NCBI GenBank assembly: GCA_905178155.1
Contig: CAJINV010000008.1
Coordinates: 2,733,303 to 2,797,302 of the forward strand
Length of the DNA: 64,000 bases
Reading direction: 5' to 3'
Source of the DNA: Amoebophrya sp. A120
Lineage: Eukaryota > Protista > Dinoflagellata
Shown: positions 8,593 through 57,599 of the stretch, piece after piece
Layout of the letters: the number at the start of each line of letters is the position of its first letter
How positions within the stretch are numbered: the first letter of the stretch is position 1
Made by a program: the position numbers and the translations under genes
Notes under the pieces: model-generated
Database searches by the model: none
Told to the model about the DNA's origin: nothing
The model's input: the letters and a program-made list of their open reading frames with translations, nothing else

Positions 8593-11500
8593 TCAATCGA
8601 GCTCGTCGAGCTCGTTTGCGGTGGTTACTTTCTTTCCTCCGCCGCCGCCCGCGCCGCGGGCCTTCGGGCCGGTCTGCTGCCGGCCCCGCGGGTTGAAACT
8701 GAACCCCGGCTTGCTTGGTTGCTCGGCTCTTCCGTCCTCGTCGTTTTCCACCGTGGTGCTCAGCTCTTCCTCCTCGATTTCCATGCGCGTGCTGCTCTGC
8801 CCGCTCTTCGCGCCTCCTGTGGAAGTTCCGCGGCTTTTCTTGCTACTACTTCCCGTGCTAGTAGTACTAGAGCTGCTACTACTCGCCGAAGAAGCTGCCG
8901 CCGGCTCTCCGCCCGCTGCTTCCAGGATTTCCTGGACAGCGGCCCGTTCCTCCGAGCCCAGCCGCGACATCATAGTTTCGATGTCCTGCATGGAGGGCAG
9001 CTTTTGCTTGGCCGCGCCCGCGGAACTTGTGTGATCCGCCACGGTGCCTGACTGCGTCTGCGAGGTGGGATTGTCGAAAACAATGGCTTCATCGTCCCAC
9101 ACGTCGCCATAGCTCTGCTTCTTCTTCTCCTCCACTTTGCTCGCTTTGGTCTTAGAGTAATCGGAATGCCACCCTGGTAATCATTTTGGTGCGCGAAGCG
9201 ATTTCAAATGATGTATCATAGAGACTATTCGGAGAAGAAAAATACATGCGAAAGAAGCAATCGTCAACATGGGTCTATGAGTACTCTGCGCTCCTGTCAA
9301 GTTACGTACCAGGATAGATAAGGGCTGCAATACGAAGATGAGGGGTCACTGGCGATGGCGAAGAAGATTGACTGCAGGTATTCGTATTCTTTTTCAAAAC
9401 ACACACTGTTATTCTACAATAGAGCGTACTTGAGGGAATGCTTTCCGAGGAGGACGAAGAGGTTCCCGCACCCGATCCGTTGCTCTTGGTGGAGGCACGA
9501 CTGTCCGCGTCGGCGTAGGCTTTCTGCAGCTCTGGGTCGTACAGCCCTTTGCCCTGCTCTTTCTCGAGCTTCAGCACCTTCAGCTGCTTATCACACACAA
9601 AATTTCCCCTAGCACTTCTATTTGATGCAATCATGCGCTCATTTACAAATCACCGCGCGATCTCGTCGTCCCCAGGAACAGGATCATCCTACGGAAGACA
9701 TAAACGAGAAATTTTCTGCCTTTTTCGCGGTTTCAAATTTGCATGACGGGTGTGGGAACCTTCTCCTGTGTGATACGCTTTCTCCTTTGAGTCGTCCTTC
9801 AGCAGCTCCTTGTTCTCTTCTTCCCATCCCATGATGCTCCGCCGGCACCGGCGCTCCCACGTGTCCACAGGATCTGTGTCTTCATCGTACTTGTCATTGG
9901 CCTATGCATTGAAAAACTGTCATGATCACTGTCGTGATGGTTCTACGTACGTTATAATCCGCGGACGGGAAAAGAACAAACTGTCAATCGTTCGGATGCA
10001 CACTGACTCAGCTCCAGTCTTACGCGATACGCAGTGCGTATCACGCGCGCATGTTGCACATACACTCACTTACTACTACCGCTGTGCCGCTGCAGGTTTC
10101 GACTTCACGTGCCGATGTCGACGCTTACTTCTGACTACTTTAGTCTTCACGCGAGGACCACATCACTGGATTTGCACTGCATATGGCCATCATTGCGCGG
10201 CGCTCCCGACCCTGCCGCTTCGCCTCGTCGCACATGCGCTTAAAGGATTCCATCTGCTTGCGATGCGCGTCTCGCTCCTCTTCCTTGTGCAGCTTGCGCT
10301 CCGCCCGCTCTGCTTCTAAGCCGCCCTGCACGAAAGCTTCCGAAAATCGTCGCTCGTCCTTGAAAACAGGTCGGTCATCCAGGTACGACAGGTTCGGCAG
10401 CGCAGCAATCACCTGGGAAAGGACAGAGTTGTGAGTGCAATCATGAGCAATTTCCGTCAGTGTTCTATTCGGAGTGGACAACTTCTGCATCTGCCGTAAC
10501 ACAATCGCACGCGCGGAAATAGTAGTTGGTGGTTAGCCGTTTTTCTTGACGTCACCATCATCAGAAATGTTTTGTTTTTGTTTGAAGCTGGGTTGCGTAA
10601 TCGGGTTCTTCCACATCGATAATCATGACTGAAGAAACCTTACCCTCTTTCGGTAGGATTTGATGGCGGACACGACGGGATTTCCCTTCAAGTACAGCAC
10701 CTTCAACTCCGGCATTTTTTCGAGGACCTCCTGCACCAGTTCGGGCTCTTTGATCTTGTAAGCTATCACGTGCAAACCAGTTGTGCCAGCAGTACATTGC
10801 ACGTCTTTTCATTGCGAGGGGAGAGACCATGTCCTCGGTCCTCTTTAACTCTCCGATGACCCCTCGACCTGAATGGCTCCTTATTCCACCAGAGAAGATG
10901 CGCGAAAAAATGCAATTCTGTATTCTATGACGGGTCGTGGTCGAAGAATCCGTCTACCATCCCGTCCCATTCAGGACAGAGCAGATTGTTTGCAGCGACG
11001 ACTCTTCGCTCTAGCGCGGTCAATGATGCATCAAATGGCGCAGCAGCGGCATGCATGGCTGCAGAACAAAGGGGACAAAATCGCGTGCGAATAGATACTA
11101 CTGCACCGAATATCCGATTGATACTTCCTTGGAGGTCCAGGACTGCAATTTTGCTTCCCACCAGGTCTCGCACGTCGTCCAGGCCTGCAACGTAATTTTT
11201 TCAACAAACCTAAGAAATGCTAGGATGCACTACGCGTTCGGATCTAAGATGCGCGTTATTTACGTTTTTTCTCAACAGCTAGCCCGCCGGGCCAAATCTT
11301 GTTTCAGCCTGAGAACCACTAACTCACATCTGCATATCATCATCATCTATCCTGCGTGGGGCACTGCGCATATTATTGTAGCGACGACTTGGATAGTACG
11401 CAAATTTTACCATTGTGCCCAAGCTGGTTGTTGGCAATCTGCAGGGTTGACAGGTTCGGTGGCAGGTTTTCGATTTTGTAAATGAAGTTGTTGCAACAGT

Positions 11501-12453
11501 TCAGGGTCTGTAGGTCCTGCATGTGCGCGATCCCGTCAATAGATTTAAGACCTGAGATGGGTTATTTTTTCTTTTCGCCGCAGATACCCCCATGGTGCTG
11601 GACTCTTTCTCTACGCTGCAAGCGATGCGAAGTCTATACATAGCCCTATGCAGAAACACGCCTTTCACACGGCCTATGAAATGATCAAGCAAGAAGCGTC
11701 GTCGAACCGTTTTGTTTTTTGTCCATGCCGCGATGGCGAAAAATGCAACGAACTAGACCAGGTAAAAAATGTATAATGCTATACAGTTCTCGTGTATGAA
11801 CAGAGACCGGAGTTTGGTCATGGACTCCAGATTTTCGATTTTCTCGATCGCGTTTGATTCCAGGTAAAGTGCCCGCATCTCCGTGAATTCCTCCAAGTTC
11901 TCGATTTTCGTGTAGCCGCCGAAATGAAGGTAGATTTTTTCGTTTAGCCCCGGCGTCGAGTAATAGAGTCGTCGATCGCTCCGCAAGATCTTCTTGATCT
12001 TGTCTCTCGTCAGTTGTGCACCACCCAGGGTCGGCGTATGAAATTAAAACAACGCTTGAAAGTCACCGACAGCAGGGAAAAATTATTCCGGAATGTGACT
12101 AGCAAAACGCGCTGTCGTTTGACTACGCAGGCAGAACCAGTCGTTGTGTGAAAAATTCATGCTATTCGTCAGAGCATGCAGTAGTCCGATCGTGAGAGCT
12201 TTCGTTCTCCTGGAATGTCCTTCTGACGGGCAGTCACATTGCACATAAGGTGTCATTGCTTTGTTTTTTTTGATTCCCGTTCCATCAACTACAGTCTTTG
12301 TGACTTTATTCCACCGTTGCGTTTTCCATAATCTCGGTCAGCGTACCACTTTGCGCGCCGTTTGGCGTCGTCTTCTGCCATCTTCTCCTCGATCGGCCGC
12401 CGGCGCTCCATCACGCTCTGATGGAGCGCCATATCCAAATCCGTGGCCGCCAT
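8593..12453 (-). CDS. DNAAF1: Dynein axonemal assembly factor 1 (ODA7/LRRC50)-like LRR protein, multi-exon
   Basis: YSTPGLNEKIYLHFGGYTKIENLEEF, LRR units, LKVLYLKGNPVV..YRKRVIAALPNLSYLDDRPVFKDERR (LRR cap typical of ODA7). Exons joined by GT-AG introns plus four TAT..ATA elements. In-frame ATGs at 12453 and 12381. Confidence 0.85.
9589..9775. mobile_element. Introner/MITE-like non-canonical intron in DNAAF1
   Basis: Ends TATCACACA..TGTGTGATA; flanks AAGCG/AGCAG on the coding strand; removal of element+5 nt gives SKEKA-LKVLK. Confidence 0.8.
9903..10183. mobile_element. Introner/MITE-like non-canonical intron in DNAAF1
   Basis: TATGCA..TGCATA ends, imperfect TIR of about 22 bp, perfect TSD GGCCA; removal gives AMMA-NDKY. 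Confidence 0.9.
10764..11123. mobile_element. Degenerate introner in DNAAF1
   Basis: TATCA..TGATA ends, degenerate TIR, flanks GGAAG/GCTTA; removal of 10760-11124 restores LRR motif LDLQGNKI. Confidence 0.75.
12037..12330. mobile_element. Degenerate introner in DNAAF1 (first intron)
   Basis: TATG..CATA ends; TIR tatggaaaacgcaacggtggaataaagtcac vs tatgaaattaaaacaacgcttgaaagtcac; TSD decayed (GAGAT/CGCCG) but element+5 removal is in frame (WYADR(D/E)-TLGGAQLTRDKI). Confidence 0.7.
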
Positions 12454-13841: not shown

Positions 13842-14717
<876 letters not shown>

Positions 14718-18800: not shown

Positions 18801-21246
18801 CGTCTAACATCTCAGTTCGGTTGTTATCGAGCTCTCACTTCGTACTACTCCTGAAACGAAAGCAATCCACGTACCCACTTCCTGCAGCCCCGCCGGGTGC
18901 ATTGGCGTCGGCCATTGTGCTGGCCGCCCCGGATGCGAAACAGGCTACCAGAAAGTTGATCTCCGGGCTGGAGAGGGCGCAGTTGAGCGCCTGCAGGGCC
19001 TGCACGAACTCCGGGGTCTGGAAAATGCCGTCGCCCTTCTTGTCGAAGGAGGCGAACGTGGAGATCCAGTTAGACTTGCGGGTCACCAATATCGCCCGTA
19101 TCCTGGCCATCAACACCTCGAATAGCTCTTGATTCTCCGCCGGGATCTGCAGCGCCGTAGTGCTAGGCCGCGCAACCTGGACAGGTGGCGACGAGGGCGG
19201 GGGTGGTGGGGGGCCCGGCCTCTTGGAACCGGGCGGCGGCGGACCCGGTGGTGCTGAGACTGACAGTGGTTTTGCACCCGGTGGGGGAGGCGGCGGTCTG
19301 CGGAAAAAAAATTTTCTTGCGTCAAGTCATTGTGTGCGTCGACCGATCGTCGCTCCACCTACCGCTAGAATACAGCAAACATAGCGCTGTGGCTGTGTGC
19401 AGACCTCCTCTGGCAGCCGCCGGGAAATCTCGACACAGAAGCTGCACCTATTTCAAAACAAACTGGCATCAAACACAAAAAAGACATTTCTGCACTTTAT
19501 TGCCGCCTCGGATTTTGGTTTTCCGCGAACGGGACTCAGGGAGATGAACGGGTCGTTGTCCGGCGGCAGTTGCAGCCTCTCCGCGGTCTCGCTCTATCCA
19601 AGAAAAAAACATTGTAGGTGTAACTTTTTTGGAGGAACAGCATTAGAAATTTGTCTGGCATGACAGCAAAAACCTGCCATGCGCAGATAGTACGTGAAAA
19701 CGCCCTTTAATGGACCCTACGACGCATGCCAAGCATGACAGACGCAATCATCTTGCATGTTGCGCATCACAAATTTACACTAACAGCGTTTTTTTCTTGG
19801 ATACGCTCACGTAGGGGTCCAGTAATATTTCCGTGGTTTCCGGCCGCGCCTCCGCAGATTTGGTCAGGAGTCGCTTGATCAGGTCCATCAAGCGCGTGCT
19901 GTACTGATCTGGGATGGGGTCGTAGTGCTCGGAGACGATTTTGTACACCAACCCGAGCAGGGAGGAGGACTCGAAGGCGTGCTTCAACATACACAGCTCG
20001 TACAGCATATCACACAGAAAAAAGCTGGCAGGGCATGTTTGTAATGCAAAAATAAATACACTGAAAAATCTGCATTGCATATCCGAAACAGCATGCTATG
20101 GGGCCACCCATGGCGAGTTTTTCTGTGTATTTGTTTTTGCATTACAAATATGCCCTACCAGCTGTTTTCTCTGGGATACAGCACGCACCCCAGCGCCCAC
20201 ACGTCCGACTTCCAGTTGTAGGGCTCGCTCCGGCACACCTCGGGCGACATGTAGTAGGGCGTGCCCACCACCGTGACCGCCGCCTCGCGCGTCCCGTCCA
20301 GCACCCGGGAAATCCCGAAGTCCCCCAGCTTCACGTTGTAGTCCTGCAACGGCGGCGTGGCCGCGTTATCGACAACCCCGGCCAGCGCCGGGCTGTTGCT
20401 GCCGTCCAGGAATATGTTCGAGGTTTTCAGGTCGCGGTGCAGAATCTTCTGTCGGTGGATGTAGTTCAGCGCGTGCAGCAGCTGCGTGAACCAGCGCATG
20501 ATCACCACCTCCTCCAGCTGCTCCTTCTTCTTCGCGCAGGACTTTATCAACTTCCGCAGATCGCCGTGCGGGGCGTACTCCATCACGATGACCAAAATGT
20601 TCAAATTGAAGGTGAGCGAGAAACTTTCGATGTACCCGTATTGTGAGGAAATATCCCCCCACCCCATATCAAAACGAAGTTTCTGATGCTGGATTTGAGT
20701 ACACAAATCAGGTTTGTCTTGCAGAAAGTGCTTGGCGGCAATTTCTGAGCCTGTGTGGGTATGCAGAAGGCTAGCAATTACGCATGGAGCACAGGTTTGC
20801 AGTAGCCGAAAGCGCATGACAGATTGGCTTTGGAATGCGCCACATGGCTCCTATTACCCTATATGCAAGACAAAGATGATTTGTGGCCACAAATCAGCAT
20901 CACAAATTTCCATTTTGATATGGGGAGGGGGGATTTTTCCTTTTGATAACCCGATGATGTGCGGGTGCCGCATCTGCTGCAGCAGCTGGACCTCCTGCTG
21001 CGCCAGCTTCTGATCGTGCTCGTTGAGCGCGTCCACCTGCACCGACTTGGCGACCAGTTGCACGTTCGGCTCCCCGCAGCGGCTGACCAGCTGCGCGATG
21101 CCGTACTGTCCGCGGCCAATCACGGAAACGCGGTTGTAGCCGTACTCCGACAGGTCCGGCCCCGAGTCCTTCTTCTTGGTTGCCGGGTCCGCTGGGTTGT
21201 TGTTCTGGCCGTTGGCATTCGCCAACTTCATAATCTCCTCCGCCAT
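15851..21246 (-). CDS. NIMA-related (NEK) kinase followed by a Pro-rich linker and several EF-hand-like repeats; multi-exon, 3' part less certain
   Basis: IGRGQYG, VAK, HPHIIGYIESF, ILHRDLKTSNIFL, VKLGDFGISRVL, VGTPYYMSPEVC, KSDVWALGCVLYELC. Then FASFDKKGDGIFQTPEF, GDVDYRDF, GQVNIDEF and LVDKTSEGDI. Confidence 0.8.
17209..17437. mobile_element. Degenerate introner in the NEK gene
   Basis: TAT..ATA ends, residual TIR (gaaatgc..agcag), flanks TCGAT/TTCCC; element+5 removal gives LCQID-QGLTSHQVDFL. Confidence 0.55.
19595..19803. mobile_element. Introner in the NEK gene
   Basis: TIR tatccaagaaaaaaac extending imperfectly to about 30 bp; perfect TSD GAGCG; removal gives DPYVS-ETAERL. Confidence 0.92.
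20008..20178. mobile_element. Introner in NEK kinase subdomain IX
   Basis: TIR of about 60 bp with few mismatches; perfect TSD TGCTG; removal restores WALGCVLYELC. Confidence 0.95.
20639..20948. mobile_element. Introner, family A (related to 30669-30980), in the NEK gene
   Basis: Imperfect TIR of about 85 bp (tatcaaaaggaaaaatcccccctccccatatc...); perfect TSD CGGGT; removal restores HPHIIGYIESF. Confidence 0.95.
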
Positions 21247-25000: not shown

Positions 25001-27566
25001 CACCTTCTGGTTGATGTCCTACTTTCTTCCCGACCGAGGAAGCGAGTATGTGGTGGATGCGCACGAAGTCCAGTCGTCGGGCCTGCTTGCTGCCCGGGTG
25101 GTTTCGCTTGCGCGGGGTCGCAAGGCCACCGGCGTCGGCGAAAGCAAATGGGTCAAATGCTCCTCCTGGTCCGCCGTTCGTCTCTTCCATCCCCGTAGAG
25201 CTGCTCCTCGTCGTGTCGTCATAGTACAAATCGGCTTTGCACTTCGTTTCGTACTCCAAAAAATCGATCAAATTGAAGAACGGCAAGTACCCCCGGCGAA
25301 TCCACTCATACAGATCCACGGTGACGATGGGGCGGTTTGCCAGGACCGACGCAAGCACGAAGATCGCCAAGTCCGCACACCAGAACCAGTGAATGAAAAC
25401 CGGAAGGTTTTCGGTGTCGGGGAAATAAGAAGAGGTAACGTGCTTATTTTTCAGCGCGCCTCTGCTCCCAGTTGCGCCCGCAGCTGTTCTTGAACGAGCA
25501 GGCACTTTAGAGGTGGAGGAAGCAGGGTTGTTTCCACCAGGCGGAATGTTGTCGGTGTCGTCCTCGATCGCGGCGGCAACTTCAGCAGTTCTTGTCGTTG
25601 CTTTTTTACTGCCTTTCCTACTACTTCGCCGAGCGCTTTTGCTTTTTCTCCCCGAGGGAACAATCGCATCTGCCTCCGTTGGAGGTCTATTTCCCTTTCT
25701 GCGCATGTCGATACCGAAAAATGTTTTCTGCACGCTTTCTTGCCACGATCGGTCGTGGAAGGTTGAGTGTTCCTCGTTTTGGTCCTGCTCGTCGTCTTCA
25801 CTGAGGAGATAGTTTTCTTCCTGAGAGTCTTCCTCCGGCTCCGAATCGTGATCCACAAACCGCACAGATCGCGAATTCTTATCCGACTGTTTATGCGGTT
25901 CTCTATGATTCTTCTTTGCACGATCTCCACGAGACTCTGTCAATCCGGGAATGATATCTTCTTGGGACACGCTTTGATTGATGGTATCGGTAATGGCTCG
26001 CAGATGTTGACCTTCTCCACCCGGAGTCGCCGCTGCACTTCTATCGTCGTGTATTTCGTCTTTATCCATCTCTTCTCCTTCGTCCGACGAACTGTGCGTT
26101 TCCCAGACCCCGTTCTTAATCTTTTTTGACGACGCACGATTCCTCCCTCTCAAGCGCTCCTTCGTGTTGCTTCGCCAGCACTGCGCGAACGTTACACTCC
26201 CGAACCCCGCCTCCCCGGGAAGGAACTGCGAGTCCAGTAACAGCAACGTGTTCAGCTCGCGCTGGTCAACCGGCTTCGTGCCGCCGGTCGCGCTACCACG
26301 GCCGAGACGCCTGTGCCGCTTCATCGCTTTCTTTTTCTTTTCCGCTGACTCGTTGCTCAGATCATTCGTCAGCTGCAGCTGCGAAGTTGTAGATTTTTTG
26401 TTGTTACTACCAGAACTCGTCTGCCCCCGCGATAATTTATTCAGATTCTGCAGCAGCGCATCCTCCTCCTCCTCGTCACTACTGCTTCCCTTCTCCTGCT
26501 CCACTAAACTTTCGGCCATTTCGTTCGTGTGCGCCCGAAACTCCGCCCACAGGTCCCGCACGAATTGGAGCACGGGCCGGTTCGCGATCAGGTGCTTCAG
26601 CGGGTTGAAGCTCGGCTGCGGATTTAAATTTCCAGCGGAACAAACCCCTTGCTCGTGCTTGGATTTCTTCTGCGAGGACCTCATTTCTGAGGATAATGAA
26701 CGTGGCGAGTCTCTTCTCCCGCCACGCCCCTCGCTATTACTACCGCTTTCGTCGTCAGTATTGTTGTTCAATATCTGACCTTGTTCTTTTACCGCTTGTT
26801 TCTCATAGCTTTTCCCTTTTCTCATCCCGCCCTCCCGCTCGTCGATCAGCCTCGCGTGCCGCACGAGCTCGCGCATCTGCGCCTGCAGAATGTCCTGCAT
26901 CAGGTCCAAAACACTCCTTTTTCGGCGACCTTCTGCAGACTCGTCCCAGTCCGGACCGTTTTTTTTCCTTTTCTTTCTCTTCAACCCGGTGATCTCGTCG
27001 TAGTCCCCGGCCTCGTCTTCCAGGTCCCGCAAATCCCGGTATCCTGAGTAAAAACGTACCCACACCAGAGTCAGGATGGGGAATCTGCTAGACAAATCAG
27101 CCAGCTTTGGTTGTTTGGCATGACAAGTTTGTCCGCGTAGTGTAGTGCTGTTTTAGCTAGTTTAGCAGCATTACAGATCTAGTATCTCGTGCTGATTGAA
27201 GCATGACAAATTTCAAAACCGCATTAGAAAATGCTTCTCATGGGGCTCCGCATGAGAAAAATTTTAAGCATGCAGAGTTGCATGACAACTATGGTGTGGG
27301 TACGTTTTTACTCAGGATACCCGGTCCAGCTGTGTCATCTGCGCCTCCTTCCGGGCCGCCGCATCCTTTTTGATCCGGATGGACACCACCTGCTGCTTCC
27401 GCCCGGTCACGTTCTCGCCCTGGTCCCCGATGTCCACCTCCCCAAACTGCTGGGTCAGCGCGTGGTTGATCACCCCGCATTGCCGACAGGTGAAGTGCCC
27501 GGAGTTAAAGTCCTGCACTAAATCCTCGGACCCACACTCCTCACACTCCATCGGCGCGCCCGACAT
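22092..27566 (-). CDS. TFIIB-family zinc-ribbon protein, most like RNA polymerase I initiation factor TAF1B/Rrn7 (2 exons, about 1730 aa)
   Basis: N-terminal CEECGS..FTCRQCG ribbon; internal PIVTVDLYEWIRRGYLPFFN resembling the Rrn7/TAF1B cyclin-fold motif; exons joined across element 27040-27319. Confidence 0.6.
27040..27319. mobile_element. Young introner in the TAF1B-like gene
   Basis: Perfect 28-bp TIR tatcctgagtaaaaacgtacccacacca; perfect TSD CCGGG; contains an in-frame stop; removal gives QLDR-DLRDLEDE. Confidence 0.97.
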
Positions 27567-30487: not shown

Positions 30488-32121
30488 CTACTGTCCTCCC
30501 AGCCCTTGCCCAGCGGCTCCGGCGAACTGGGCCGCCAGGGCCGGCGTGGCGCCCTCCTCGTAAAAGGAGCCTCCCGGGGTCTGGTCGTAGTAGCCCGATG
30601 GTGTCATGCCCGCCAAACTCGCGTCGTAGGGCGCTTTCAAGCCCTTGGGATCCTTTCCGTCGATCATGTATCGAAAGGAAAAATCCCCCCACCCCATACT
30701 CAAACTAGAGATTTGTGATGCAGATTTGTGGTCACAAATCAGCTTTGTCATGCTAGAAGGGAAAAGATGCGGACTGTAGTGCTGGTTGGCGTGGGAAAGC
30801 CTCGGATCTTCAGCATGACAGGGGGCAGCTGGAAGTGGGAAACAGCATGACAAATTGCCTGCAAACGAGGCCACAGCTGCGTCTCTTGGCCTTCTAGCAT
30901 TACAAGTCGATTTGTGTACTCAAATACAGCATCACAAATTTCGTTTTCGATATGGGGAGGGGGGATTTTTCCTTTTGATATGATGTATGGCGTCTTCATC
31001 TTGTCGTCCTTCCCATAGCCCAACTCCACCCCCGGGACGCCCCCGACCTGCGTCTTGGCACCCGAAGCGCCGGCCACCCGCTTGTGCGCGTTCATCTGCT
31101 CTTTCAGTTGCTTGTCCCCCAGCGGGATCACCCCACCCTCGCGGATCGTTGCCTTCTTCAACAGCTCGTCGAACTCCTTGTCCTCTTTTACCGCCATGCA
31201 GATCAGCCGCGGCGTGATGCGCGCCTTCTTGTTCTGCCCCGTCTGTTTGTTCACCGTGTTATTCCCCATCGCCACCTTGGCCCGGTTCCCCGCCAGCTCG
31301 CACAGCTCGGCGACCAGGTACTCCATCACGGCGGCGCAGAAGACCGCGGTGGTGCCGGACACGCGCGCGTTCGCCGACGCCCGGCTCTTCAGCCGATTGT
31401 GAATACGCGCGACCGGGAAAATCAGGTTCGCCTTCGCCGCGCGGGTCTTGGCAGACCCCTTCTTTTTCCCCTTCGACTTCGCCTCCTTGTTCTTCGCCTT
31501 CCCCAGCTTCGCCAGTTTGTCCTTCTGTTTTTTTTGTCAAGTCCGATGTGGGGAAGTTGTTTTTGTACAGCGGTTTTATTCCATACGAGATCATTTTGTT
31601 GTAGCTTGATAACTTATTCAAAAAGAAAAATGAGTCCGCACAGGCACGCTAATGCCAAAAAAAAAAGCAACTACATAGTACAAAGCATCTACCTTCGATT
31701 TCTTCTTTGCGTTGATGCCGATGGGAAGTTCTGAGAGGATGATTTTGTCCTTCTTCCCCTTGTCTTTTTTGTCCTTCATCTTGTCCAGCTTGTCGTACTT
31801 CATCATCTTGTCTTGCTGTATACAAAAGGAAAATCAAAACCGTGCCCTTTTGTTGATGCTATGCCAGTTCGATTTGCTCTTCATGCGCCGCTTTTACAGC
31901 GTGCGCTGTTTCTTATTAAGCAAGTAGTAGCTCAGATGTGTAGTGCAGATGTACCTATTAATCCTAATGCTAAGGCACAAATCATAACGGTGCTATTCAA
32001 CATGCAGAGAATCAACAATAGAGCGAGGTTTAATTTTTCGCAGTCGGTTATTGTCCATCTTGTTTTTGTCCACCGCCATCTTCTTTTTCTTCGTCGCCAT
32101 CTTCTTCTCTGCGTCCTCCAT
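30488..32121 (-). CDS. Atypical histone H2A variant with long Lys-rich N-tail and long C-tail (4 exons)
   Basis: TRAAKANLIFPVARIHNRLK..VSGTTAVFCAAVMEYLVAELCELAGN..RITPRLICMAVKEDKEFDELLKKATIREGGVIP. GT-AG intron at 31525-31692 and introner at 30669-30980; first intron boundaries ambiguous. Confidence 0.85.
30669..30980. mobile_element. Introner, family A, in the H2A gene
   Basis: Same TIR as 20639-20948; TSD CATCA/CATGA; removal gives KTPY(I/M)-IDGKDPKG. Confidence 0.93.
31813..32050. mobile_element. Possible old introner forming H2A intron 1
   Basis: Flanking GACAA direct repeat and degenerate TIR (aaacc..ct.ttgttgat.ct.tgc); ends no longer TAT/ATA; an in-frame GT-AG alternative also exists. 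Confidence 0.45.
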
Positions 32122-37763: not shown

Positions 37764-38250
37764 ATTGAATCACTATTTTTCATTAAAAAGTCAGTACGGT
37801 ACGCTCTAATCTGCAGCGCTTTCCATGAAAAGCTCGAAGGTTATTTCCGCTGTTTCCCTGCATAACCAGCTTCAAGGTCATTCGCATGCGTGAGTGAGGC
37901 TTTAGACACTGTGAAGAGGAGATCATGTAGTTTCGATCCGGCAAAACAAAAAGAGATATCTTCTCATGATCTGCAACTGCAACGATACCTTAGGATCTTT
38001 AGCATGGTCCAATATCAAGATCTCTGTTGATGGCGTTCGGTCAAATGTAAATGACGACGTAGGAACATGATCTTCAATAGTCAGTACTAGCTAGTCCTGC
38101 ATTGCTCTAACACTAACTTGCTCGCCGGCTAGTGCGCAGGACATCGCTGCGTTCGCTCGGGCTTGAGCAAATTGAAATGTCGTCTTACTGCGTAGTGAAA
38201 GCATTGCGGTCTTTCGGAGGAAAAGCAAAAAGTGCGTCGCTTTTCTGCTC

Positions 38251-41200
38251 TTACATCAACCCGGCAAATGGGTCGTTATTTGTTCTTGGAAAGGGGGAGA
38301 ACTGGGAGTTCGCTTGGTTTTGATTATTCCCCATGTTCATCATAGGATTACCACTCGGATTCATGTTCATCATGGGATTTTGCTGCTGCTGTCCTCCACC
38401 TGGCATCATGCCCCCCATCGGGCTCATGTTCATCATGAGGTTGTTCGCGCCTCCACCCATTCCGCCCATCATCGGATTAACATTACCTGCTCCGCCTGCA
38501 GCACCTGGAAGCTGCATTCCCCCGGACGATGAGGTAGATGAATTCATTCCCCCTGTACTAGCGCTACCACCTGCGCTCCCCAACCCCGCGAACGGATCCC
38601 CCTGCATGTTCGCCATCCCGACCCACTGCGAACTGACGCCGGTCTTCTGCAAATCGAAGCTTTGCAACCCACCCGTCAACGTGCTCGAAGTCGCAGCGGA
38701 AGTCCCCGTCATCACTCCAGAGGAGTTGTAGAAACCCGGATCGTTTAGTTGCGCGAGGGGGTTGGCGCTACTAGTAGTGCCGGACATGTTAATACCACCG
38801 GCGCCGGTGGATGTTGTAGTCGTCGTCGTCCCCATCATAGACAGCAAGTCGTCCTGCCTCGCAGCGGAAGACGCTGCGGGCCCCGAACCTGGAATCGGCA
38901 GCTGCATAGGAATCGACGGATTACTCGGCGGCTTGCTAATCGGCATGGAACTCGTCGTGCTCACTGGCGGCCCGGATGTTGAAAACAAGTCCAGCATGTT
39001 GCTCGTCGACCCAGGGTTGGAATTATTCGACGTCGTGTTCATCATGTTTCCAAATCCATCATCCAGCAACGAGCCCCCACTGCCGGAGGTGCGGGAGCTC
39101 GTCTTCGCGAAATTGTTGCTGGTCGACGGAACAGTCGGGCCGCTGAGCAACAAGTCGAAATCGGACTTCGCGTCGGAGGAGGCTTTCGAGTTTGTCACGG
39201 TTGTACTCGCGGCGTTCGAGGACGTTGTGGCCCAGGGGTTATTGCTCGTAGTTCCGAAACCACCTCCTCCAGTCGGACCACCCGTTGGGGTCGCGCCCCC
39301 GAGCTCCGCCAGAAAATTGTCATCCGCGTCCGGTACTCGCGGCTTCGCGGTGGTCCCGCCTTCATTGGCGGTTAGCAGCCCCCCTGCCGAGCCCATTCCG
39401 CCGAGCGCGGCGTTCACGTCCGCACTGTTGTCCGTCCTCGTTGCGTACTCTTTTGAACGTGAGGTGTCCACTCGCTCCAGCAACTTGCGGCACACCTCCA
39501 TCTGTGTGCGGTACTGGTCCGCGGTGAGGGATTCCTCGGCGAGCAACGGGCACACCAAGGGCAAGATTTTCGTCGCGGTTTCGCGCGGCCCGAGAAACTT
39601 GCTCATGGCGTCGTAGGTAGAAAGCAGCACCATGCACAGCGCCGGCGCCCGCTCCATCTTCTGCACGCGCTCGCAGGCGGTCAGGATGGTCTCCAAAATG
39701 GTGGACCGATCAAACACCGCGAACATCGCGTTGATGCCCATCAAAATTTGCACCCGGGTATTACATGCAAAAATGTCTGGGTCTGGAAAGTTCCGAGGTT
39801 TGTCATGCAGTTTTTCCAAGCTCCACCAAGTCTGTATTGCAGGGCCTAGCATCACAGATTCTGCAGCCCCTTGGTGATGCCTATTCTGCATGAGAAATCA
39901 ATGCCCCGCCGGCATGGCTAGAAATGGGGGACTTTTGCAAGTCATGCAACAGAGATTTTTGTATGATCCGCAACACGCATCACAAGCTCGCATCCTTCCA
40001 GACCCAGACATTTTTGCAGTTGATACCGGGCCTTCAGCGTAGACTCGTTGCGCAGCAAAACGGCGAGCATGCGGGGCAGGATTTGGTCTTTGATGTGCCG
40101 GTACTCAAATTTCTCGTGCAGCTGCGGGATCTTTTCCAGAGCGGTCTGCGCGATCGTCGGCTCGGGAAGCTCGAGACAGCGAAGTAGAAAGGGGAGCAGA
40201 ATCTGGGAGGAAAGATTGGCTGTCATCATTCTTGAATGGGTCCGTCTGTCGTCGTGGGAAGATGAAACTTGTCTTTATGCAAAAAGGCTAGGACAAAAGG
40301 GAAAAAAGCATCAAGTTAGCTATACCGCGTTTGCCTCGCTGGTTGCGGTCAGCTGCATGATCAGATCCAAATTCCGAATCAAGTCCGTCACAGCTTCTAT
40401 CGGGATCTCCTTCGCCGAGAAAAGAGCGCGCATCCCTGGCCACACTTTCTCCTGTGATAATGTTCAGAAACGGCCTTATCAAATGCTTTCTGTTTCTGCT
40501 ATTCCTGCTGCTGGGTCGCACTCATACCAGACATCGGTACTGGAATAGCTTTGTAATATTTCCATGGCATAAAGTAGAAATACGTTCAATATGAGAACAT
40601 TTTCATGTAGACTTCGAACCTGAAACTGCTCTGGGGTGAGAAGATTCGGTCGCTTGAGGCACACCAGAATGCACTGCAGCACGTGACCGTACAAAGGCGG
40701 GTAGTTTAGAGCGCGGACCAGCTGGGGCAGAACCCTTTCGCGGAGCTGTTGTGATAAGTGGACAGAAAATAATCTGTGATGCGCCCTGCCCAAAAAGCAA
40801 CAGTTCCCTGAAAAAAATGTTTTTTGTCCTTTTCCCGAACAAATTTATGTTGAAAATGAAAAAGACAAAAACAACAAGGCAATCTCTACAATCCTATCCG
40901 CGGTCAACGCACTCGCCGGCTGCTCCAGCAGGTTCTTGAAGCCCTTCAGGAACTGTGCCTTCTGCGCATCGTCCTTTTCCGACAGAGTCTCTAAAAACCG
41001 CAAAGCCTTGATGTGGATGTCCTGAAAGAACTCCGATTGTAGAAAGGCGCTGATATCGATGCGGTGCTCCGGGTTCGGCGCAAGCATGCCACACAGGATG
41101 GAAACCAGCTCCGGTGGGACCTTGGCGTGCAGGTCCTTGAGTGGGAGAAGCTGCTGGAGCTTCGACTGGTGCCCATTCCTGTCGTACCGCCCGAGCTGGG

Positions 41201-43733: not shown

Positions 43734-46646
43734 TTACAGGAGGGTTTGCAAAGCCGCCGCCGTGATGCTGGTTCGACCGGTCCCCGGGCCCAGTCCGGGT
43801 GCACCTAGCCCCATCCGCCCCATTGGCGGCCCCGCCGCGACCATGGAAGTCCTGCCGGCGGAGCGGGGGGTGAGGACGGTGGGGGTCGTTCTCCCCCCGC
43901 TAGCGACCACCTGCTTCGCCTGGGTGGCCACGTTCGTGCTGGGAGCTGCCGTTTCGTCCGCATTCCGCTGCTGGCGGTACATCATGCGCCGCATGCGCTG
44001 CTCCTCGCGGTCCTGTTGCCGTTTGCCCCACTCGTCGTCATTATCCTCTCTCTCGCCGAAACAGAAGCAACAGCAATCGCTGCCGTACTTCTGTCGCAAA
44101 CACCAAATAACCACAGTCACAACCACCAGGCTCAGAACGGGTATGAGCACCAGCAAGGTCACGTTGGTCATGTTTCCGCAGGGGCCAACGTCCAGCTTCT
44201 CCACGCCAAAGCTATGGAAACGAAGGGTGGGAGGCGGAAGGAACAGGAAGTCGTTTTTTTCACCTTTGCGGACGTTCGTATTGAATATGAAACTAAATGC
44301 GACCACATTGCACGCTTGAGGCATAAGTGCGCGGCTGGAACTCAACGAAGCTGAAAAATACAGAGAGGTGACGTGCCACCTTTAAGTTTTTTCCTCACGG
44401 GGCGGCAAAAACAAGAACGGATTTCCGCCCGTCAAGTAATGCAAAAATTTGTCTTTCACCATCACCTCTTAGAAATGGTATGGTATCTTTTGAAGAAATG
44501 TCGACTATGCAAGAATATCGAAATTCTTCTCAAAAACCAATTAAGTATAGATTGTCAACTTCATCCTGCGACCCACTCATCGGTTTTTTACTATTTCATA
44601 AAAGCACGTGAGCACGTCTCTCCTGTCGACGGGGGTGCCCATGATGCCATTCGGCCCGAAGTACAGCACGCACGTGGGGTAACGGCTGCCTTCCGTCCTG
44701 TAAATTGAGAAGCCCAAACACGGCAGATCGTCGGTGATCACTTCCAGAATCTCCGCGGTCTCCTTGGTACAGTACGCTGCACACTCCTCCACGAAGACCT
44801 CTGGCTTCTCATCTCGGGCCGCCAAGAGAGAAGCAAGTTTGGCTTTCTCGAGGCGGTTGACGCTGTCCACAGTGTACCCGTGTACCTCCAACTCGTTGGC
44901 AATGTGCGGCAGCGCGTTGCGTATCAGCTGCGGGTCGGTCTGCAGATCGTCGGCGAGAGACTCGTGATAATCCGCGTCGAACGGGATGGCCGCGCCGAAA
45001 ATTTCTGTTGAGACAATTTTTGTATTTCGTAAAAATTGTAGTTGGGCAGGGTTTGATATTTTTATTTTGCATCAAAACTTCGAACCAAACTAGACGAGAC
45101 GCAGTTCTCTTTCCGATCATGTCGAATGAAAGATAGTATCAAAAAAAAATCTCAAGTCCTATACGGGAGGGATGTTCGGGATTTGCCGGCGTTGCGCCTA
45201 GCGGTGGATGTACGAAGGGGTCTTGCAGTTTTCCGATATCGAAAATGTAGTGGTTGGCGAAGTATGAAATGCAAAAATGTCTGGGTCTGGAATGTTGCCG
45301 GGTTTGTCATGCATATTTTGCATGACCCAGGATATCTGTAATGCGCGACCTAGCATCATACATTTTTAGAGGCTTCCTGATGTCTACTCCGCATGACAAA
45401 TCCCCCCCCCGCGTATCACGAACTAGACGCCTCTTGGTGGTCATGCAATACAGATTTTTTTAGAGTCCAAAGTTAGCATCACAAGTTCCAACCTTCCAGA
45501 CCCAAACATATTTGCATTTGATACGTAGTTCGAATCGCCTTGTCGTCCGTACCCGGACGGGCACACGAGGGACGTTACACTGTCAAACTGGAGAGTGCTG
45601 CGAGGTGCTTGTTCCTGTTCCTTAATGCTCTCCCGCCGGTGGAGTTCTTGTTCTATTAGCTCATCTTGGCGCCCAGAAATACTATTTTCCCGCATCTTTA
45701 TATCGAGAAAGGTTGTCGTGTTGGCGAGAAGGTGGTCTTCGTCTTGGTCTGTTGAAACCCTTGCTAGTCTACTTGTGGGCGTGCCGGTGTACCTCGAATG
45801 ATGAAGTTGTTTATCATCAGCAGCACTGGTTGATGGTGTGCTCTCTGTCACGACCAGAAGATCTGGCACAGGTAGCTCTTGCTCTGCGCTTGCTAACAGG
45901 AAGTCGCGCGGCCCTTCTGATTCGGCAACGGTTCCAAGGGTCCCTTCATATTTTTCTGCGATATTCCCGTGGTCTCCGCCTGTCTGATGAAACGACGAAG
46001 ACGCCGACTCATCGGCCGCGGCCGCGGGCACCAATCCCACTTCTACCACTTTCCGGTTCATTTCGCCAAGTTTCGTCTCCGCAGGGCTTGCTTCGACGTT
46101 CTCTGTAGTTGACGCCACGTATGAAGCCTCAGGCGTGCTGCCGTCTGTCGGCGCGCCGGCCTCTTCCGTGGAAAAGATCTGGTGTCGCAGAAGCGTTTCG
46201 CCGTCATGGTTACCACGATCTCTTTGGTGCATATAGGTACTTTTTCTGGCCGATTTTTTCGTACGTAATGTTGCCCTCTCCGAGTTCACCTCACCGCTGC
46301 TTTTCGTGTACAGATTGCTCGACGCCGCGGCCTGATCATCATTTCCGCTCGGAGATTCATTCTTGTTCACCGCACGCCTATGCTTGGATATCTTGACTTT
46401 CTCAACAACGGTCGTGTAGGCGATTGCAAAGTTGCTTCTGCTGGCGTCTTGCAACAGCAGGCAGATGCTCGCAAAGGTCAACCAGCTTCTTCTGGCCGGA
46501 ATCTCTGTAGCCAGAAGGGCCGCGCCATGCGGATTTCTGGCGGAATTGAAAATGTGGTAGAAGACCACAGGTGTCGCGGTCTTTCGGCTTCTAACCATCG
46601 TGTTCCCGGAGGGGTCTGGGGCGGCCGACTGGTGTAAAAGCCGCAT
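43734..46646 (-). CDS. PAN/Apple-like type I membrane protein, paralog 1 (4 exons)
   Basis: LVCPSGY...ECAAYC..LPCLGFSI..TCVLYF..DVLTC, then TM (LLVLIPVLSLVVVTVVIW) and CCCFC. Introners at 45263-45523 and 44213-44600; GT-AG intron at 45005-45164. Confidence 0.7.
44213..44600. mobile_element. Introner in PAN-like paralog 1
   Basis: TATG..CATA ends, degenerate TIR, perfect TSD GCTTT; removal gives DVLTCF-GVEKL. Confidence 0.85.
45263..45523. mobile_element. Introner, family B, in PAN-like paralog 1
   Basis: Aligns along its length with 39759-40025; TSD CTACG/CTTCG; removal gives GDSNY-ANHYIF. Confidence 0.93.
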
Positions 46647-52011: not shown

Positions 52012-54050
52012 AGCCGGGGACGGGAAGTATTTCCTTGCTTATTGAGAACAAAAAATCAAGAGGAGGACGCGTCTGGAATTAATGCGCTAGACCGGAAATC
52101 GGTCCGACACAGAGCGTCCATCAGAAATGAATCCTAAACGATGTAGTGGGTGTGGCATATAATTCCTAAAACTTTACTTCCTGAGCTGGTACAACTTAGT
52201 AGTTATTGATTGGTCTAGTCACAAAAAATGGGGAAGATTTCATGATGAAAGGGGGTTGTTAATAGACCTGCTGTGGGAAAAAGCGAAAGCACGTGCATGT
52301 TCAACATTAACGACATTTTTGAAACGTCAAGTGAACGCAAAGACGAAGAGACAAATTCAGGAATAACGCACGGTGTACGTCAGATCTCTTCTTCAGTCGA
52401 AGAGTAATACTATGCAAATCACGATACACTGCTACCGAGTTCACGATACCTTGCGCGCAGGCGCAGGAGCACAGAACGTACTTGTAAAAAGTCAACCGCA
52501 CGAATTTGAACGAAAGCAGGCTGATTCCTTGTCCAGTGTACGACAAGCGACTAGGAACGACACAGAAGTTCTTGCCGCAATGCTAGTTCCAAATACGCAA
52601 CCGATCAGATTCGGACGAAGACCGAGTTTTTTATACCTTGACTACCTTTTCTAGAGGCTTACGGCAACACCAACAAGACTCGTAGTTGCGTATGCACAGT
52701 TGGCAGCTACAGCACCGAGCGCTGCTCTAACTACCGAAGAGGGGAAGAAAAAAGGGCAGGAATTGAGGTTTACTTCACGTATCTTCGACAGTGAATGCAT
52801 AAATGCTACACAGAATGCTCCGCTTCGGTGAGGAAAGACAAATGGACGAACAGCACGTTTCTGTCAAGTGAAGACCACAAATATGGCTCCAGAGTGGCCG
52901 TCTGCAGGAGATACATAAGTACACCTACAATAGTTCGATGCATTTAGAATTTGAAAATGAGTTGTTGGACTTGAAACTCAAACTGTGCGATCAGAGGATG
53001 GTCCAGAAAATGAAATTGTTCAGATATATAAGCATACGTATAACAAGTCTGAAAATTATTGAGCGTAAAAAAAGTCATCGGCGCTAGCACGAACGAAACA
53101 AAGGCGCAAAAACAATATCGAAACGACCTGCCGACGTCAACTAGAGCCGACCACGGCTACGTTCGATATTGGTTGTCATATTTTAATCTGCCGAATTTTT
53201 TTCCATTGAACCCAAACAATACAGCGAAGATGGTGATGATGATCTTAGCACATCACACAGGTTGTATTTGAAACATACATACATACACCTTCTACACAGT
53301 ACCTTTTCGAATACCGCGTGGATAGAAGCAATTCACAAAAGGAGTCGAAAAAGCAAGACCATAATTGACCATCACTAGCGGCCTTTTGCTGCAGAATAGC
53401 ACTAGTAGTACTAGCTGACGAAAATAACAAGTTATATCAATTCCAGCTATTTTTCCCGGCCCCAGAACCTTACACAGCGCGCTACTTCGGCTGCTTTCTG
53501 CCACAAAAAATGAAATACAGGTATGTACATAGTGCTTTGGACCCGATAATCTTCCCTTTACCTTTTCGAATGCGTCATAATTATCAACTAGACCACGGAC
53601 AAGGGAAGTATCAAAAACTGATGCAGTAGACCACACCATTAGTTTTCAAACCCTTCCCTTTTGCCGGCTGGATCTTGCGAAAGACAGATAGATGAATACG
53701 AAAAACCGATTCAAAATCATTCATTATCGTCTTTCGCTTTGGACATTTTTTCTACTTATCATCTTGATTTTTACAAAGAGAAAGAATAGTAGTCGGAAAA
53801 TTTGTTTTCACGGAAACTTGAACGAGCCTGGACGACGAGAAAGTTACGTCATCTCCTGAGCCAGTGACGAATAGTCCTCGGCTGGATAAAGCAATTCGAT
53901 CAGAGCGGATGCAGGTTGATAACCAGTGCGCAAGAACGGTTGATTGTTTAAACAACACCACGAGTTCTAGTATTTTTCCCTACATCTCGTGTATAATAGC
54001 ACCAGCATAAAAAATAAAAGCACTTGCTTTTAGGAATTTAATGTAGCCGG

Positions 54051-57000
54051 CTACGACCTGAGTGCCATTGCGGCGCTGCGGTGCCCCTTCCTCGGACTGG
54101 CAATCGCTTCTCCGTTTTTGATTTGCTGCCGGTTGTAGCGCATGTTCAGGAAAACGCCGAAGGCGACGACGAACACTCCCAACACGCGCGAAGTCGTGAG
54201 CGATCGCTGTTGCAGGCCGATCCATCCAAATTGGTCGAAAGGCATGGATCCCACCAACTGACCGAGCAGAATCAACAGCCACAGCATCGTTTGCCCAATG
54301 CGGGGCCCGATCACGCAACTTTGGTAAACGCAAAACGCGCCGATTAAACCTTCGGAGTTTGTTTTTTAGGGAGAGATCATGGTTTTTCTAGTCTTCATTC
54401 CTTTTCCTGCTTCCTCGTCGCACAACTGTACGTAGTACTTAGCTCACGTAAAGAAGAATCATTATAGGCACGATAATTGGCAGGTCTGTGCATATTATCC
54501 AAAAGACCGCTTTCCCCCGCCAAATAAAGAAGCCAAACCCTGCTATTGAAAGAACATGAAAATAACTACCATACCTGGCGCAAACATCCAAACTGGCACT
54601 GGTTTTTCCACGGGCGCAAGCGGGTAGTCCCAGCCGAGAAATACGACAGTGGAAGCCATCGACGCGCCGATGAAGCTGACCAGTGCGCCACTGTCGTTGC
54701 TCGCAAAGCATCGCCGGGCCGCCGCGTTCACCGAGGCCTGGATCGGAAGGCACACGCCGCCAAAAAAGGCCAGCACCATGAAAGGCAGCGTGTGCTGCCA
54801 GAAGTCCTCCTCCGTCTTCTGGTGGTCCTGCTGCTCTCCGTGTAGTTCATGAGCACGGCCCGGAGCAGAGGGGGAGACCGTTGCCGAAGCAGCCGCTGTG
54901 GACGGCGACGCTCCAGCGGACGACGAGGTTCCCGACGGGGACACTTCTGCCTCTAGTCGGAGGTGGTGTTGGACCGTTGCAGTAGAAGCGGAAGGCGGTG
55001 CTGACCGACCGGCGGGAGAGGAAGCTGTGCTGCCAGCACTGGCAGTAGAGGAGAAGGTGCTGATCACGACCAAAAGAACGCCGCCCCCAACTACCAAAAT
55101 CGCGGTCAGCTTGCCCGCATTCAGCGGGCGGCGCGGCAACCCCGCAAAGCCCTTGTGGTCGCACAGCATGCTAGAAGACAGTTGGCCGGCCGCGTTGATC
55201 AGGAAAAAAGCGACGCACCCGATCTTGGAAATTGTCAAAAACGCGGTAGTCACGATAAACACACCAATGGGGCCCCCGAGCAGCTTCCAAATCTTGATTT
55301 GCTCCCGCGGGTGCTCTTCGCGTACTTTGGTTTTGATCTCCACCACGTGGAGCGGATTGTTGGCCGCGACCGCAGTAAAGTTCTTTGCTTGCGAACTTTG
55401 ATCTACTAGATTTTGTACGACAGTGGCTCCGGGAGATGTAACGAGAAGGTGGTCCTTGCCGCCAGTAACGCTTTTCAGTTCGTACGAAGGAGTTGACGAT
55501 GTTTCCGCTGATGTATCTTCAGAGGGGACACCACCTTTCATCACCTTTTTGGTGCAAGCAACGACTTTCGGCGACTCCTTCAGCGACGCTCTCCGCCCCA
55601 CGTCTAGGTTCAACCGAAACAGGAGCCCGATGTTGGGGATTTGATGCTTTTTCTTCGGAGCTCCTGCGTGACTGTGCTGCACCGACTGGTGGCTCACCTC
55701 TTGCGATTGGCTCCGCGCACAGATGATGTTATTTTTACCAACGGGGGACAGCGCTGAAAAATCGTCCTCGCTGCCACTCGACGTCCTGTGAGGTTCTCCT
55801 TTGTCGTGTGCGAGAACTTCGGTGGTCGTGCTGTCGTGTGGGAACAAAACCGGATCCGACTGCTTCGCCTTACTTGCTCTTGATGAAGCGAAGCTCGTAC
55901 TCATGGATGCCGGTGCAGGTGCTGTGCCCGTCGCTGCGGTGTGCTGACTTGACGTCATTTGATGTTGTTCCAACGTCCGGTCGCTGCCAGATGAACTACT
56001 TGTTTGCGTATCATTCTGCTCTCTCGTCGCTGGACGAGAGTCTTCCTGTTCAACGTCCGGGTCCTCCAAAAAAAGTTGGTCGAGTCCGCGCTTCTTCGCT
56101 GGTCGGCCCGCCGCCATCTTGGCGGCAAAATCCACGCCAGACAGGGGGTTTGCAGCGGAACTACTGGTGGTCGTGAGAGCACCACCAAGGCAGCTGCTCT
56201 TTAGTTCAACTACACTGTTCAGGCTGTCGACTTCGCTTGAACACAGAAACTGGTATGTGTCTGGGGGCGTCTCTAGCACAAAATTGTCTTCTGGATCCGA
56301 GGTACTGCCGACTAGTCCTGTTCCTTCAGCATGATCCTGAAGACGATCTCCTCCAAGAGCTCCGTGGGCGTTATTAGCAGAAATGCTGTTCGCGGTGGAA
56401 CGACCACCAGCACGCGCAGAATCTTGGGAAGGACAGTTCTGGATGCCCGAGGAGGTGGTGGTGGTTTCGGTCTTGACACTGGTCATGGTGTGCGCGTTCT
56501 GATCCACGACTTTGAGGAACGAAAGTTTATTGTTCCTCTCATCGGAGGAAGCTGCACCCCCAGAACTCCGCCCAGACGAGGAGGATGCAACCGACGGCGT
56601 AGATGAAACCCCGGATGTTGATATCCTCGCAGCTGCAGCTGGTGCCCCTTTGTAGACTTCGACTTCGTGAAGATTTTGAACACTTTCTCCCCCGTCCGGA
56701 GGTACGCAGGTGCTGCACGTGCTCACTTGGTTGCGCCGGTCGAGGTCGTTTTTCCCGAGCTCGAGTTCCTCGTCTTTACTGGGTATGAGGACTGGATTGG
56801 TATTAGTCCCTTTATTAATATTGTTCCGCTTCAACACCGGACTGCCCGTCTGCTGCTCGGGCGTGACTTTATCGCTCGCAGCATGGCACGGTCCAGTCGA
56901 ACTTGTGGCGCTGGACGTCGTTGAGGCGCACGCGACGTCCGACAAGGAAGTCGTACTACAAGTCGTGGTCGAAGAGGACAATAATTCGTCCCAGGCGTTC

Positions 57001-57599
57001 TGCGTCTTTCTCGTGGTGTACACTTTTCCGGACAGCCACAAAACCGATTTGACGACCAGAAGACAGCTCAACGCGTATCCTGCCGAAACAAGTTAGTAGC
57101 CAACACCCAAATTATTTTATCTGCGGCATGAAAGAATGTCAAGACCATGCGCCAGGCGATTTGCTGAGTACACAAGTGTTGCTGGCCAGCAATCTCCATT
57201 TTGGGTGCTGTGAGTGGCAAATTATTGGATTTGGGGGTGTAGGATAGGAATCGAAGCTGGCGCTGGCTATACAAGAGCCACATCAGGAAAAATTCGCTCT
57301 TTTTTTATTCCTGATTGAAGGAGCAGAGCCTTTAATAGCTATGCCTCTCATGCATAGGTGCAACTACAGAGACGTTCGGTACCGTCTCTGGACAACATGC
57401 AAATCTCCATGACAAATACTTTCTGGGTCGTGGTTAAGTACTACTTCTTTACACAGGATAATGCGCCGAGCATGTTGAGCATGGCCGCGAAGGGTGCGGA
57501 CTGAAAAGTCGCCGCGAGACGCGCGCCGATCGCACCATGTAGCGCCAACAGCATCCCCGCCGCTAGCGGGATTGCGTGCTCCAGAACCGTGAGAAGCAT
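54051..57599 (-). CDS. Tandem YdcZ/DUF606 (DMT superfamily) transporter-like protein with a very large low-complexity insert
   Basis: Domain 1: AAGMLLALHGAIGARLA..AAMLNMLG ... WKLLGGPIG..IG..AGQLSSSMLCDHKG. Domain 2: GGVCLPIQASVN..ALVSFIG..WMFAPGLIGAF..RIG..LGQLVGSMPFDQFG. One introner and one GT-AG intron. Confidence 0.75.
57076..57460. mobile_element. Introner in the YdcZ-like gene
   Basis: TIR tatcctgtgtaaagaagtagta vs tatcctgccgaaacaagttagta; TSD CGCAT/CGCGT; removal gives MLGA-LSCLLVV. Confidence 0.9.

Follow-up and report, generated by a model that had tools for sequence, protein, structure and literature searches.

Non-canonical introns have been described on a genomic scale in the dinoflagellate Amoebophrya sp. 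A120, where, according to the accessible parts of Farhat et al. 2021, more than 60% of introns are non-canonical, with a mean length of 240 nt, inverted repeats (IRs) starting with TAT, direct repeats of 3–5 nt and 29,850 repeated introns (PMC7789003). That report found neither a transposase nor U1, called the intron borders 'variable' or 'unknown', and left open how the 60–65% of introns in A120 and strain A25 that do without GT-AG are spliced (PMC7789003). Gozashti et al. 2025 distinguish 58 A120 families, and most of the 19 family rows available to us are DNA elements with terminal inverted repeats (TIRs) of unknown superfamily (PMC12130899). Here we analyse a 64,000-nt window of A120 contig CAJINV010000008.1 (positions 2,733,303–2,797,302, forward strand), whose coding regions are interrupted by TIR elements that are almost certainly the introners of Farhat et al. 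2021. A preliminary description of this DNA stated that inverted-repeat introners had been reported in Amoebophrya, and that paper confirms it (PMC7789003). The elements and their removal are thus already published for A120; the observation is real and its first interpretation is supported. The apparently new part is the splice register, which is very probably fixed at 1 nt before TAT and 4 nt after ATA (−1/+4).

Inverted-repeat and motif scans, together with reading frames, recovered 16 TA..TA-bounded insertions of 171–415 bp spanning 9589–57460 (Table 1), in agreement with the earlier count of at least 16 in conserved coding regions. Coordinates give the TA..TA body of each element in window numbering, and all host coding regions lie on the minus strand; our own reading of the frames gives about eight host genes, and eight rather than the nine first proposed are counted here. 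Exact 5-bp repeats flank seven of the elements, the same seven previously listed as perfect target-site duplications (TSDs). A 5-bp repeat taken alone does not exceed chance expectation (11 TAT..ATA pairs with a perfect repeat against 9.5 in 50 block shuffles); combined with a TIR, a perfect repeat is above chance (six observed against a shuffle mean of 0.4 and maximum of 2), and a gapped TIR score of at least 12 with a repeat of at least 3/5 was found eight times, against none in eight shuffles. Five elements (10764, 12037, 31819, 44213 and 48320) have weak or decayed TIRs, escaped the TIR scan and came to light through their reading frames; for 44213 the support is the reading frame.

The elements are incompatible with the coding frames that they interrupt. 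Retention brings stop codons in all 15 elements with an open flanking frame (48320 gave none and lies outside this test), and removal restores the motifs WALGCVLYELC and HPHIIGYIESF, as first described. The preliminary description had further held that in-frame GT-AG alternatives are generally lacking. This stands for sequence-equivalent registers, none of which exists as GT-AG for any of the 16 elements, but not for the surroundings: seven have an in-frame GT-AG pair at most 15 nt away, whose use would alter the protein, and element 9903 has an equivalent GC-AG register.

Transcript evidence for removal comes from the region 9000–14400, which covers four elements (9589, 9903, 10764 and 12037). 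Contigs from X1 and X2, two samples of one study taken as RNA by guess (as are the types of X1–X4), omit 9584–9775, 9898–10183, 10760–11124 and 12033–12331, so that the element plus 5 nt is missing in all four cases, bearing out the claim of removal from mRNA without GT-AG; the same contigs also omit four GT-AG introns. The X5 contig runs unbroken over 9000–13878, without differences from the window and with the elements kept. With elements and introns out, the joined exons read as 588 stop-free codons. The joints GT..TT and TT..CC at 10764 and 12037 depart from the canonical U2 GT/GC-AG pattern; the former was flagged 'between: not known' by the mapping program, and an in-frame AG 3 nt upstream of it is passed over. 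These contigs establish that a spliced form exists, not its proportion, and rare variants are dropped by contigs. The share of words of 19000–28000 present, 0.75 in X1 against 0.95 in X5, indirectly fits a spliced transcriptome.

Protein evidence extends removal to further elements. Two window exons agree at 100% identity with A120 proteins (P0001 and P0121), and database proteins of this strain back the removal of 30669, 31819, 48320 and 48662; at 48662, according to P0121, an in-frame GT-AG pair that would drop three codons is unused. Removal of 39759 is backed by the orthologue P0146. Its host gene is one that we take to encode a SCY1-like pseudokinase; a search of representative sequences with the SCY1-like exon returned orthologues, the A120 protein not being among them.

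Element anatomy was read from 37 loci (259.5 kb) of assembly JACKZZ01, retrieved with one TIR end, a choice that inflates element density. Exact look-up of 28 locus open reading frames (ORFs) found 16 in the collection and three clusters containing an A120 protein, with near-complete identity for locus L027 and less for L025 as well as parts of L005; because three ORFs cluster with A120 proteins at those identities, we treat the loci as those of a close strain. A scan selecting on the TIR, not on the duplication, gave 198 elements with a median length of 263 bp. Of these, 135 carry a perfect 5-bp duplication and one a perfect 6-bp duplication; mean identity is 0.87 at 5 bp against 0.23–0.30 for the remaining lengths in the range 2–10. 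For a coding test set of 168 elements (TAT..ATA ends, repeat of at least 4/5, length at most 450), removal of the element plus 5 nt gave the best coding frame in 130 under a coding model and was outright best by ORF length in 83; strand calls by ORF length were noisy, and the coding model was used instead. Insertion occurs both ways (117 elements orientable; family end 5′ in 12 and 3′ in 8).

The consensus of these 117 has TAT in 100% (a filter requirement) and A in 82–97% at positions 11–14, and this TIR form, in which roughly seven variable bases separate TAT from an A run, is weak or absent in five of the 16 window elements. Full-length relatives at 72–92% were found in the 260 kb of sister loci for seven window elements and none for the other nine. 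The elements are therefore MITE-like (resembling miniature inverted-repeat transposable elements), having TIRs, a fixed 5-bp duplication, dispersed families, no coding capacity and both orientations, and the initial reading of TIR plus TSD as DNA-transposon-type anatomy is upheld. A CNNNG target preference was considered and rejected, the duplications having no consensus. Duplication mismatches among the 117 are uneven over sense positions 1–5 (2, 2, 8, 3 and 10).

We define the register k as the number of bases of the upstream duplication copy that remain in the exon, so that at k=4 the intron consists of 1 nt, TAT..ATA and 4 nt. A perfect duplication allows six equivalent border positions, which explains the published border variability; decayed duplications make the register readable, and cases that are perfect or synonymous carry no information on it and were left out of the count. 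The junctions in RNA contigs permit k=4 only at 10764 and 12037 and k=4–5 at 9589, and A120 proteins aligned to window DNA permit the ranges given in Table 1 for 30669, 31819, 48320 and 48662. On the sister loci, A120 proteins permit k=4 only for L025 2819–3074 (sense, as for the other L025 positions) and L005 3545, k=0–4 for L025 4191–4496, L027 8729 and L005 7248, and k=2–5 for L025 7455–7796. Register 4 is the sole one fitting all 13 junctions (seven same-strain, six cross-strain), four of which permit no other. As 10764 suggested the rule it was excluded from the chance estimate, which for the other 12 all permitting k=4 under uniform registers is 2.8e-5, a figure that makes the case look somewhat stronger than it is, since the boundaries of 31819 and 48320 were set by eye.

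Conventional signals are scarce at these borders. Among the 117 elements, GY-AG is possible in any register for six, and an AG stands at the register-4 3′ end in nine. Selection for G at intron +1 is unsupported in the same set (43/117 against 0.294 in the flank, p=0.085), G being equally common at position 1. In Table S4 of Farhat et al., T is second in all of the top nine non-canonical motifs of A120, the 3′ end being free, and the top nine of A25 all start with TT (PMC7789003). The same authors also remark on four bases of the repeat that precede the 5′ end (PMC7789003), so the register rule is hinted at, not stated. A statement of a fixed register was not found in the accessible parts of the literature searched, including PMC11282704, PMC9860276, PMC12005148, PMC11453091 and PMC12787238, a search that took in neither Roy et al. 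2023 (Curr Biol) nor most of the subscription literature.

Terminal mutations bear on how the borders are read. A survey of deviant ends gave 254 candidates; 138 of them were clear of any clean element, full-length family members numbered 12, and a locus strand was available for 11. In these 11 elements, six changes fall at intron +3/+4 and none at the paired −6/−7 (p=0.03), and four fall at −5 against one at +2; the window adds three elements with a TAA or TAC start and an intact ATA end. Such one-sided changes suggest that U(+2) and A(−7) are read at the level of RNA, because a constraint at the DNA level or on pairing only would be symmetric.

Taken as a whole, the explanation that we favour with moderate confidence is that hairpin elements with 5-bp duplications, likely spread by a DNA transposase, are cut at a fixed register, likely by an AG-independent spliceosome. 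A DDE integrase-like transposase making a 5-bp staggered cut would insert the element, and the TIR hairpin would bring the intron ends together. The 5′ end N|UAU would imitate the donor GUA via U(+2); the branch nucleotide would be the A at position −7, with which the terminal AUA begins; and the 3′ cut would be placed by distance, a fixed six bases after A(−7), without AG. A spliceosome needing neither G(+1) nor AG would then remove the element together with one duplication's worth of sequence. Since each TIR end carries both signals and the host sequence lost amounts to exactly one duplication, an insertion in either orientation would be silent wherever in an exon it lands, and this would account for the invasion. 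These parts differ in strength: the removing enzyme is probably the spliceosome, and the branch at A(−7) is a tentative assignment. Tentative too is the strict form of the idea, that with a spliceosome ignoring G(+1) and AG, reading U(+2), branching at A(−7) and cutting six bases on, any TAT..ATA transposon with a 5-bp duplication may be a perfect intron.

The same elements and the same fixed register could instead reflect a structure-guided endonuclease and ligase, tRNA-splicing-like or euglenid-like, that cuts at set distances from the hairpin base; we consider this unlikely, though a serious alternative. Such an enzyme would suit the dispensability of both G(+1) and AG, the missing U1 (PMC7789003) and the excision of euglenid TIR introns as circles without a lariat (PMC11282704). 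Folding predicts the second terminal TIR pair, with a probability of at least 0.5 and no shuffle control, in 12 of the 16 window elements including the decayed 10764 and 12037, yet no terminal pair is predicted in the other four, among them 31819 and 48320, which are removed according to database proteins. The one-sided terminal changes are likewise difficult to reconcile with cutting guided by structure, as C at +4 disrupts the pair, yet the pairing-neutral G at −7 is unseen (small n), and T(+2) is common to A25 and A120 despite their differing TIR motifs. A spliceosomal route is further compatible with the nearly complete A120 spliceosome and with the presence of inverted or direct repeats in 15% of canonical introns (PMC7789003).

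Several observations weigh against the favoured explanation. The terminal asymmetry rests on 11 elements, and two of their strand calls conflicted, one later confirmed by protein and one not. A(+3) is altered in three elements, so that donor mimicry would be loose; a conserved U two bases before the candidate branch A is absent, TIR position 5 being A in only 47–53%; and A(−7) itself sits within the predicted stem. U1 was not found in A120 (PMC7789003), no lariat was seen, and the raw RNA run X8, with 0 reads placed, is uninformative on retention and minor sites. No transposase was found, a genome-wide search not having been made. As to the register, only three junctions come straight from RNA contigs and these belong to a single gene, and database proteins are annotation products with codon resolution only. 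The last L025 intron, outside the 13, shows no clear register, and two further junctions outside that set lean elsewhere: L005 5853 matches 8/13 residues at registers 0–2 and 7/13 at register 4, and L005 6383 matches 9/13 at registers 0–1 and 7/13 at register 4, both in poorly conserved stretches with no exact match at any register. The Fig. 3 legend of Farhat et al. describes splice sites as variable relative to the hairpin (PMC7789003).

That legend and the two contrary cross-strain junctions would be expected of a spliceosome with loose, hairpin-assisted site choice, in which the register varies within the duplication and the −1/+4 rule is a small-sample or annotation effect; the 19 accessible rows of the 58 A120 families, in which TSD lengths (2–5) as well as splice-site calls are mixed (PMC12130899), point the same way. 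We judge this improbable, as the published variability is sufficiently accounted for by perfect duplications, at which any annotated border is arbitrary, and all four uniquely resolved junctions fall at register 4. Far less probable still is DNA-level excision, resembling that of internal eliminated sequences, or untranscribed copies, with the joined contigs derived from element-free DNA: run types were guessed and contigs drop rare variants, yet the same contigs omit four GT-AG introns too, the X5 contig retains all, and the register tracks the transcribed strand on plus- and minus-strand genes despite two-way insertion.

With regard to the mobiliser, the accessible rows of Gozashti et al. 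show TIRs together with Copia/Gypsy-related ORFs in family 38 (PMC12130899), which is a candidate; the window elements could not be linked to it. A TAT..ATA element of 1126 nt in L025 (sense 1351–2476, reverse strand) has a perfect 5-bp duplication and no frame longer than 76 codons. It is packed with tandem palindromic repeats of about 160 bp, and the A120 protein P0133 reads across it. In viral contigs the TIR motif had 22 matches; none showed a matching far end together with a duplication, and they were put down to chance.

Table 1. TAT..ATA-type elements of the window and the intron surrounding element 9589
Feature	Coordinates	Strand	Remarks
TAT..ATA element, leucine-rich repeat (LRR) protein gene	9589..9775	-	flanks AAGCG/AGCAG; missing from X1 and X2 contigs; register 4 or 5
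Intron around element 9589	9585-9776 (GT..CA) or 9584-9775 (TA..AG)	-	transcript contigs; in-frame GC-AG option unused
Element, perfect GGCCA duplication, LRR gene	9903..10183	-	286 nt absent from X1 and X2; register ambiguous, GC-AG option among the possibilities
Decayed element, LRR gene	10764..11123	-	intron 10760-11124 = G+TATC..GATA+GCTT (GT..TT); unique joint in X1 and X2
Decayed element, LRR gene	12037..12330	-	intron 12033-12331 = T+TATG..CATA+CGCC (TT..CC); unique joint in X1 and X2
Element in NEK-type kinase gene, perfect GAGCG duplication	19595..19803	-	family member, 91% to copy in L037
Element, 61-nt TIR, perfect TGCTG duplication	20008..20178	-	interrupts kinase motif WALGCVLYELC
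Element, perfect CGGGT duplication	20639..20948	-	interrupts HPHIIGYIESF; ends common to 30669
Element, perfect CCGGG duplication	27040..27319	-	host gene without Pfam match in long exon; 23 full-length relatives in sister loci
Element, flanks CATCA/CATGA, H2A-variant gene	30669..30980	-	A120 protein P0001 permits registers 4-5 only
Decayed element (TAA..ATA), flanks GACAA/CAGCA, H2A-variant gene	31819..32050	-	P0001 permits registers 4-5 only; boundary set by eye
Element, perfect CCCGG duplication, presumed SCY1-like pseudokinase gene (Pfam Pkinase)	39759..40025	-	orthologue P0146 continuous across junction
TAT..ATA insertion, perfect GCTTT repeat, almost without TIR	44213..44600	-	removal restores frame; no terminal stem predicted; weakest member
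Element, flanks CTACG/CTTCG	45263..45523	-	family shared with 39759
Decayed element (TAA..ATA), flanks AAAGA/GGGGA, P0121 gene	48320..48605	-	P0121 permits registers 3-5; boundary set by eye
Element (TAC..ATA), flanks AGCGG/TGCGC, P0121 gene	48662..49076	-	P0121 permits registers 0-4
Element, flanks CGCAT/CGCGT, YdcZ/DMT-family gene	57076..57460	-	gapped TIR scan and reading frame

Other features of the window and the sister loci were recorded in passing. Introns near 40325, 40880 and 41357 were considered as decayed elements and set aside as ordinary GT-AG introns by the orthologue. The GT-AG intron at 41194–41357 (minus) starts GTATGA and carries a TIR-like ..TTTCATA shortly before its AG, and it may be an old element that acquired an AG acceptor. 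One X2 contig runs unbroken from the last exon of a gene that, by our own reading of the sequence, is presumably calmodulin, over a spacer of about 1.4 kb, into the spliced LRR gene (12332–13878); this could be a long 3′ untranslated-region overlap or read-through, and the contig need not be a single transcript. The H2A-like gene at 30376–32122 (minus) encodes P0001 (303 aa), whose N-terminal tail is long and rich in lysine and which is also extended at the C terminus; its Pfam Histone score is under the cut-off, and its nearest other matches are unnamed, at about 60%. The YdcZ/DMT-family transporter gene (54040–57600, minus) has a very long low-complexity stretch before the matched domain. 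L005 and L030 carry more than 10 elements in single genes, with exons of 40–100 nt, and P0143 spans about 18 introns in L005, nearly all of TAT..ATA type. For the element-rich gene of L002, no homologue was found among the proteins of at most 2000 aa searched.

A fixed −1/+4 register defines borders formerly thought undefined and can be checked genome-wide on existing RNA-seq; it also names a candidate branch base and helps to tell removal by a spliceosome from removal of the ligase type. If true, it would explain the tolerance of insertions at any exonic site and better the gene models of the group. The strict form of the mechanism would in addition reduce tens of thousands of introns, at present called motif-less, to a one-line splicing code, with a ruler-type choice of the 3′ splice site without AG.

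Comparison with described systems, as far as the accessible parts of the sources go, places the window elements closest to the A120 and A25 introners, with which they share the strain (A120, by protein identity), an inverted repeat that opens with TAT and, after some seven variable positions, continues as a run of A, direct repeats of 3–5 nt (5 bp in the Fig. S19 legend), non-canonical ends, a mean length of about 240 nt and organization in families (PMC7789003). In that account the border is variable or unknown and the repeat length varies, whereas the present elements have a duplication of strictly 5 bp and a register that appears fixed at −1/+4. In the A120 families of Gozashti et al., automated TSD (2–5) and splice-site calls differ among families, with no common register in the 19 rows (PMC12130899). 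IS3EU/GingerRoot elements have similar TA..TA termini, and a short staggered cut would be in keeping with integrase-related DDE enzymes; the TSD of these elements, however, is usually 6 bp, not 5 bp (PMC10045372).

Among systems of unusual splicing, the nonconventional introns of euglenids resemble the A120 elements in having a TIR hairpin that joins the ends, TSD-like repeats, non-GT-AG borders and a stem offset with a longer 3′ overhang (PMC11282704). They differ in carrying CAG/CTG at +4..6 and −8..−6, where the A120 elements have TAT/ATA at +2..4 and −7..−5, and their excised form is reported to be a circle (PMC11282704). Fritillaria likewise has transposon-derived non-GT/AG introns and a modified major spliceosome (PMC13326754), evidence that the major spliceosome can be adapted; its preferred ends are AG-AC and AG-AT (PMC11282704) and its U2AF is duplicated, whereas the last four intron bases of the A120 elements are free. 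The fused-branch-point introns of Giardia and Trichomonas are few, not transposon-like and end in AG within CTRACACRCAG (PMC6679479), unlike the A120 elements, which lack an AG and have a candidate A at −7. Giardia nevertheless has the donor VTATGTT, with a variable first base, and an invariant branch-to-3′ distance (PMC6679479), and such VTAT donors and fixed spacing provide a precedent for the mechanism proposed here.

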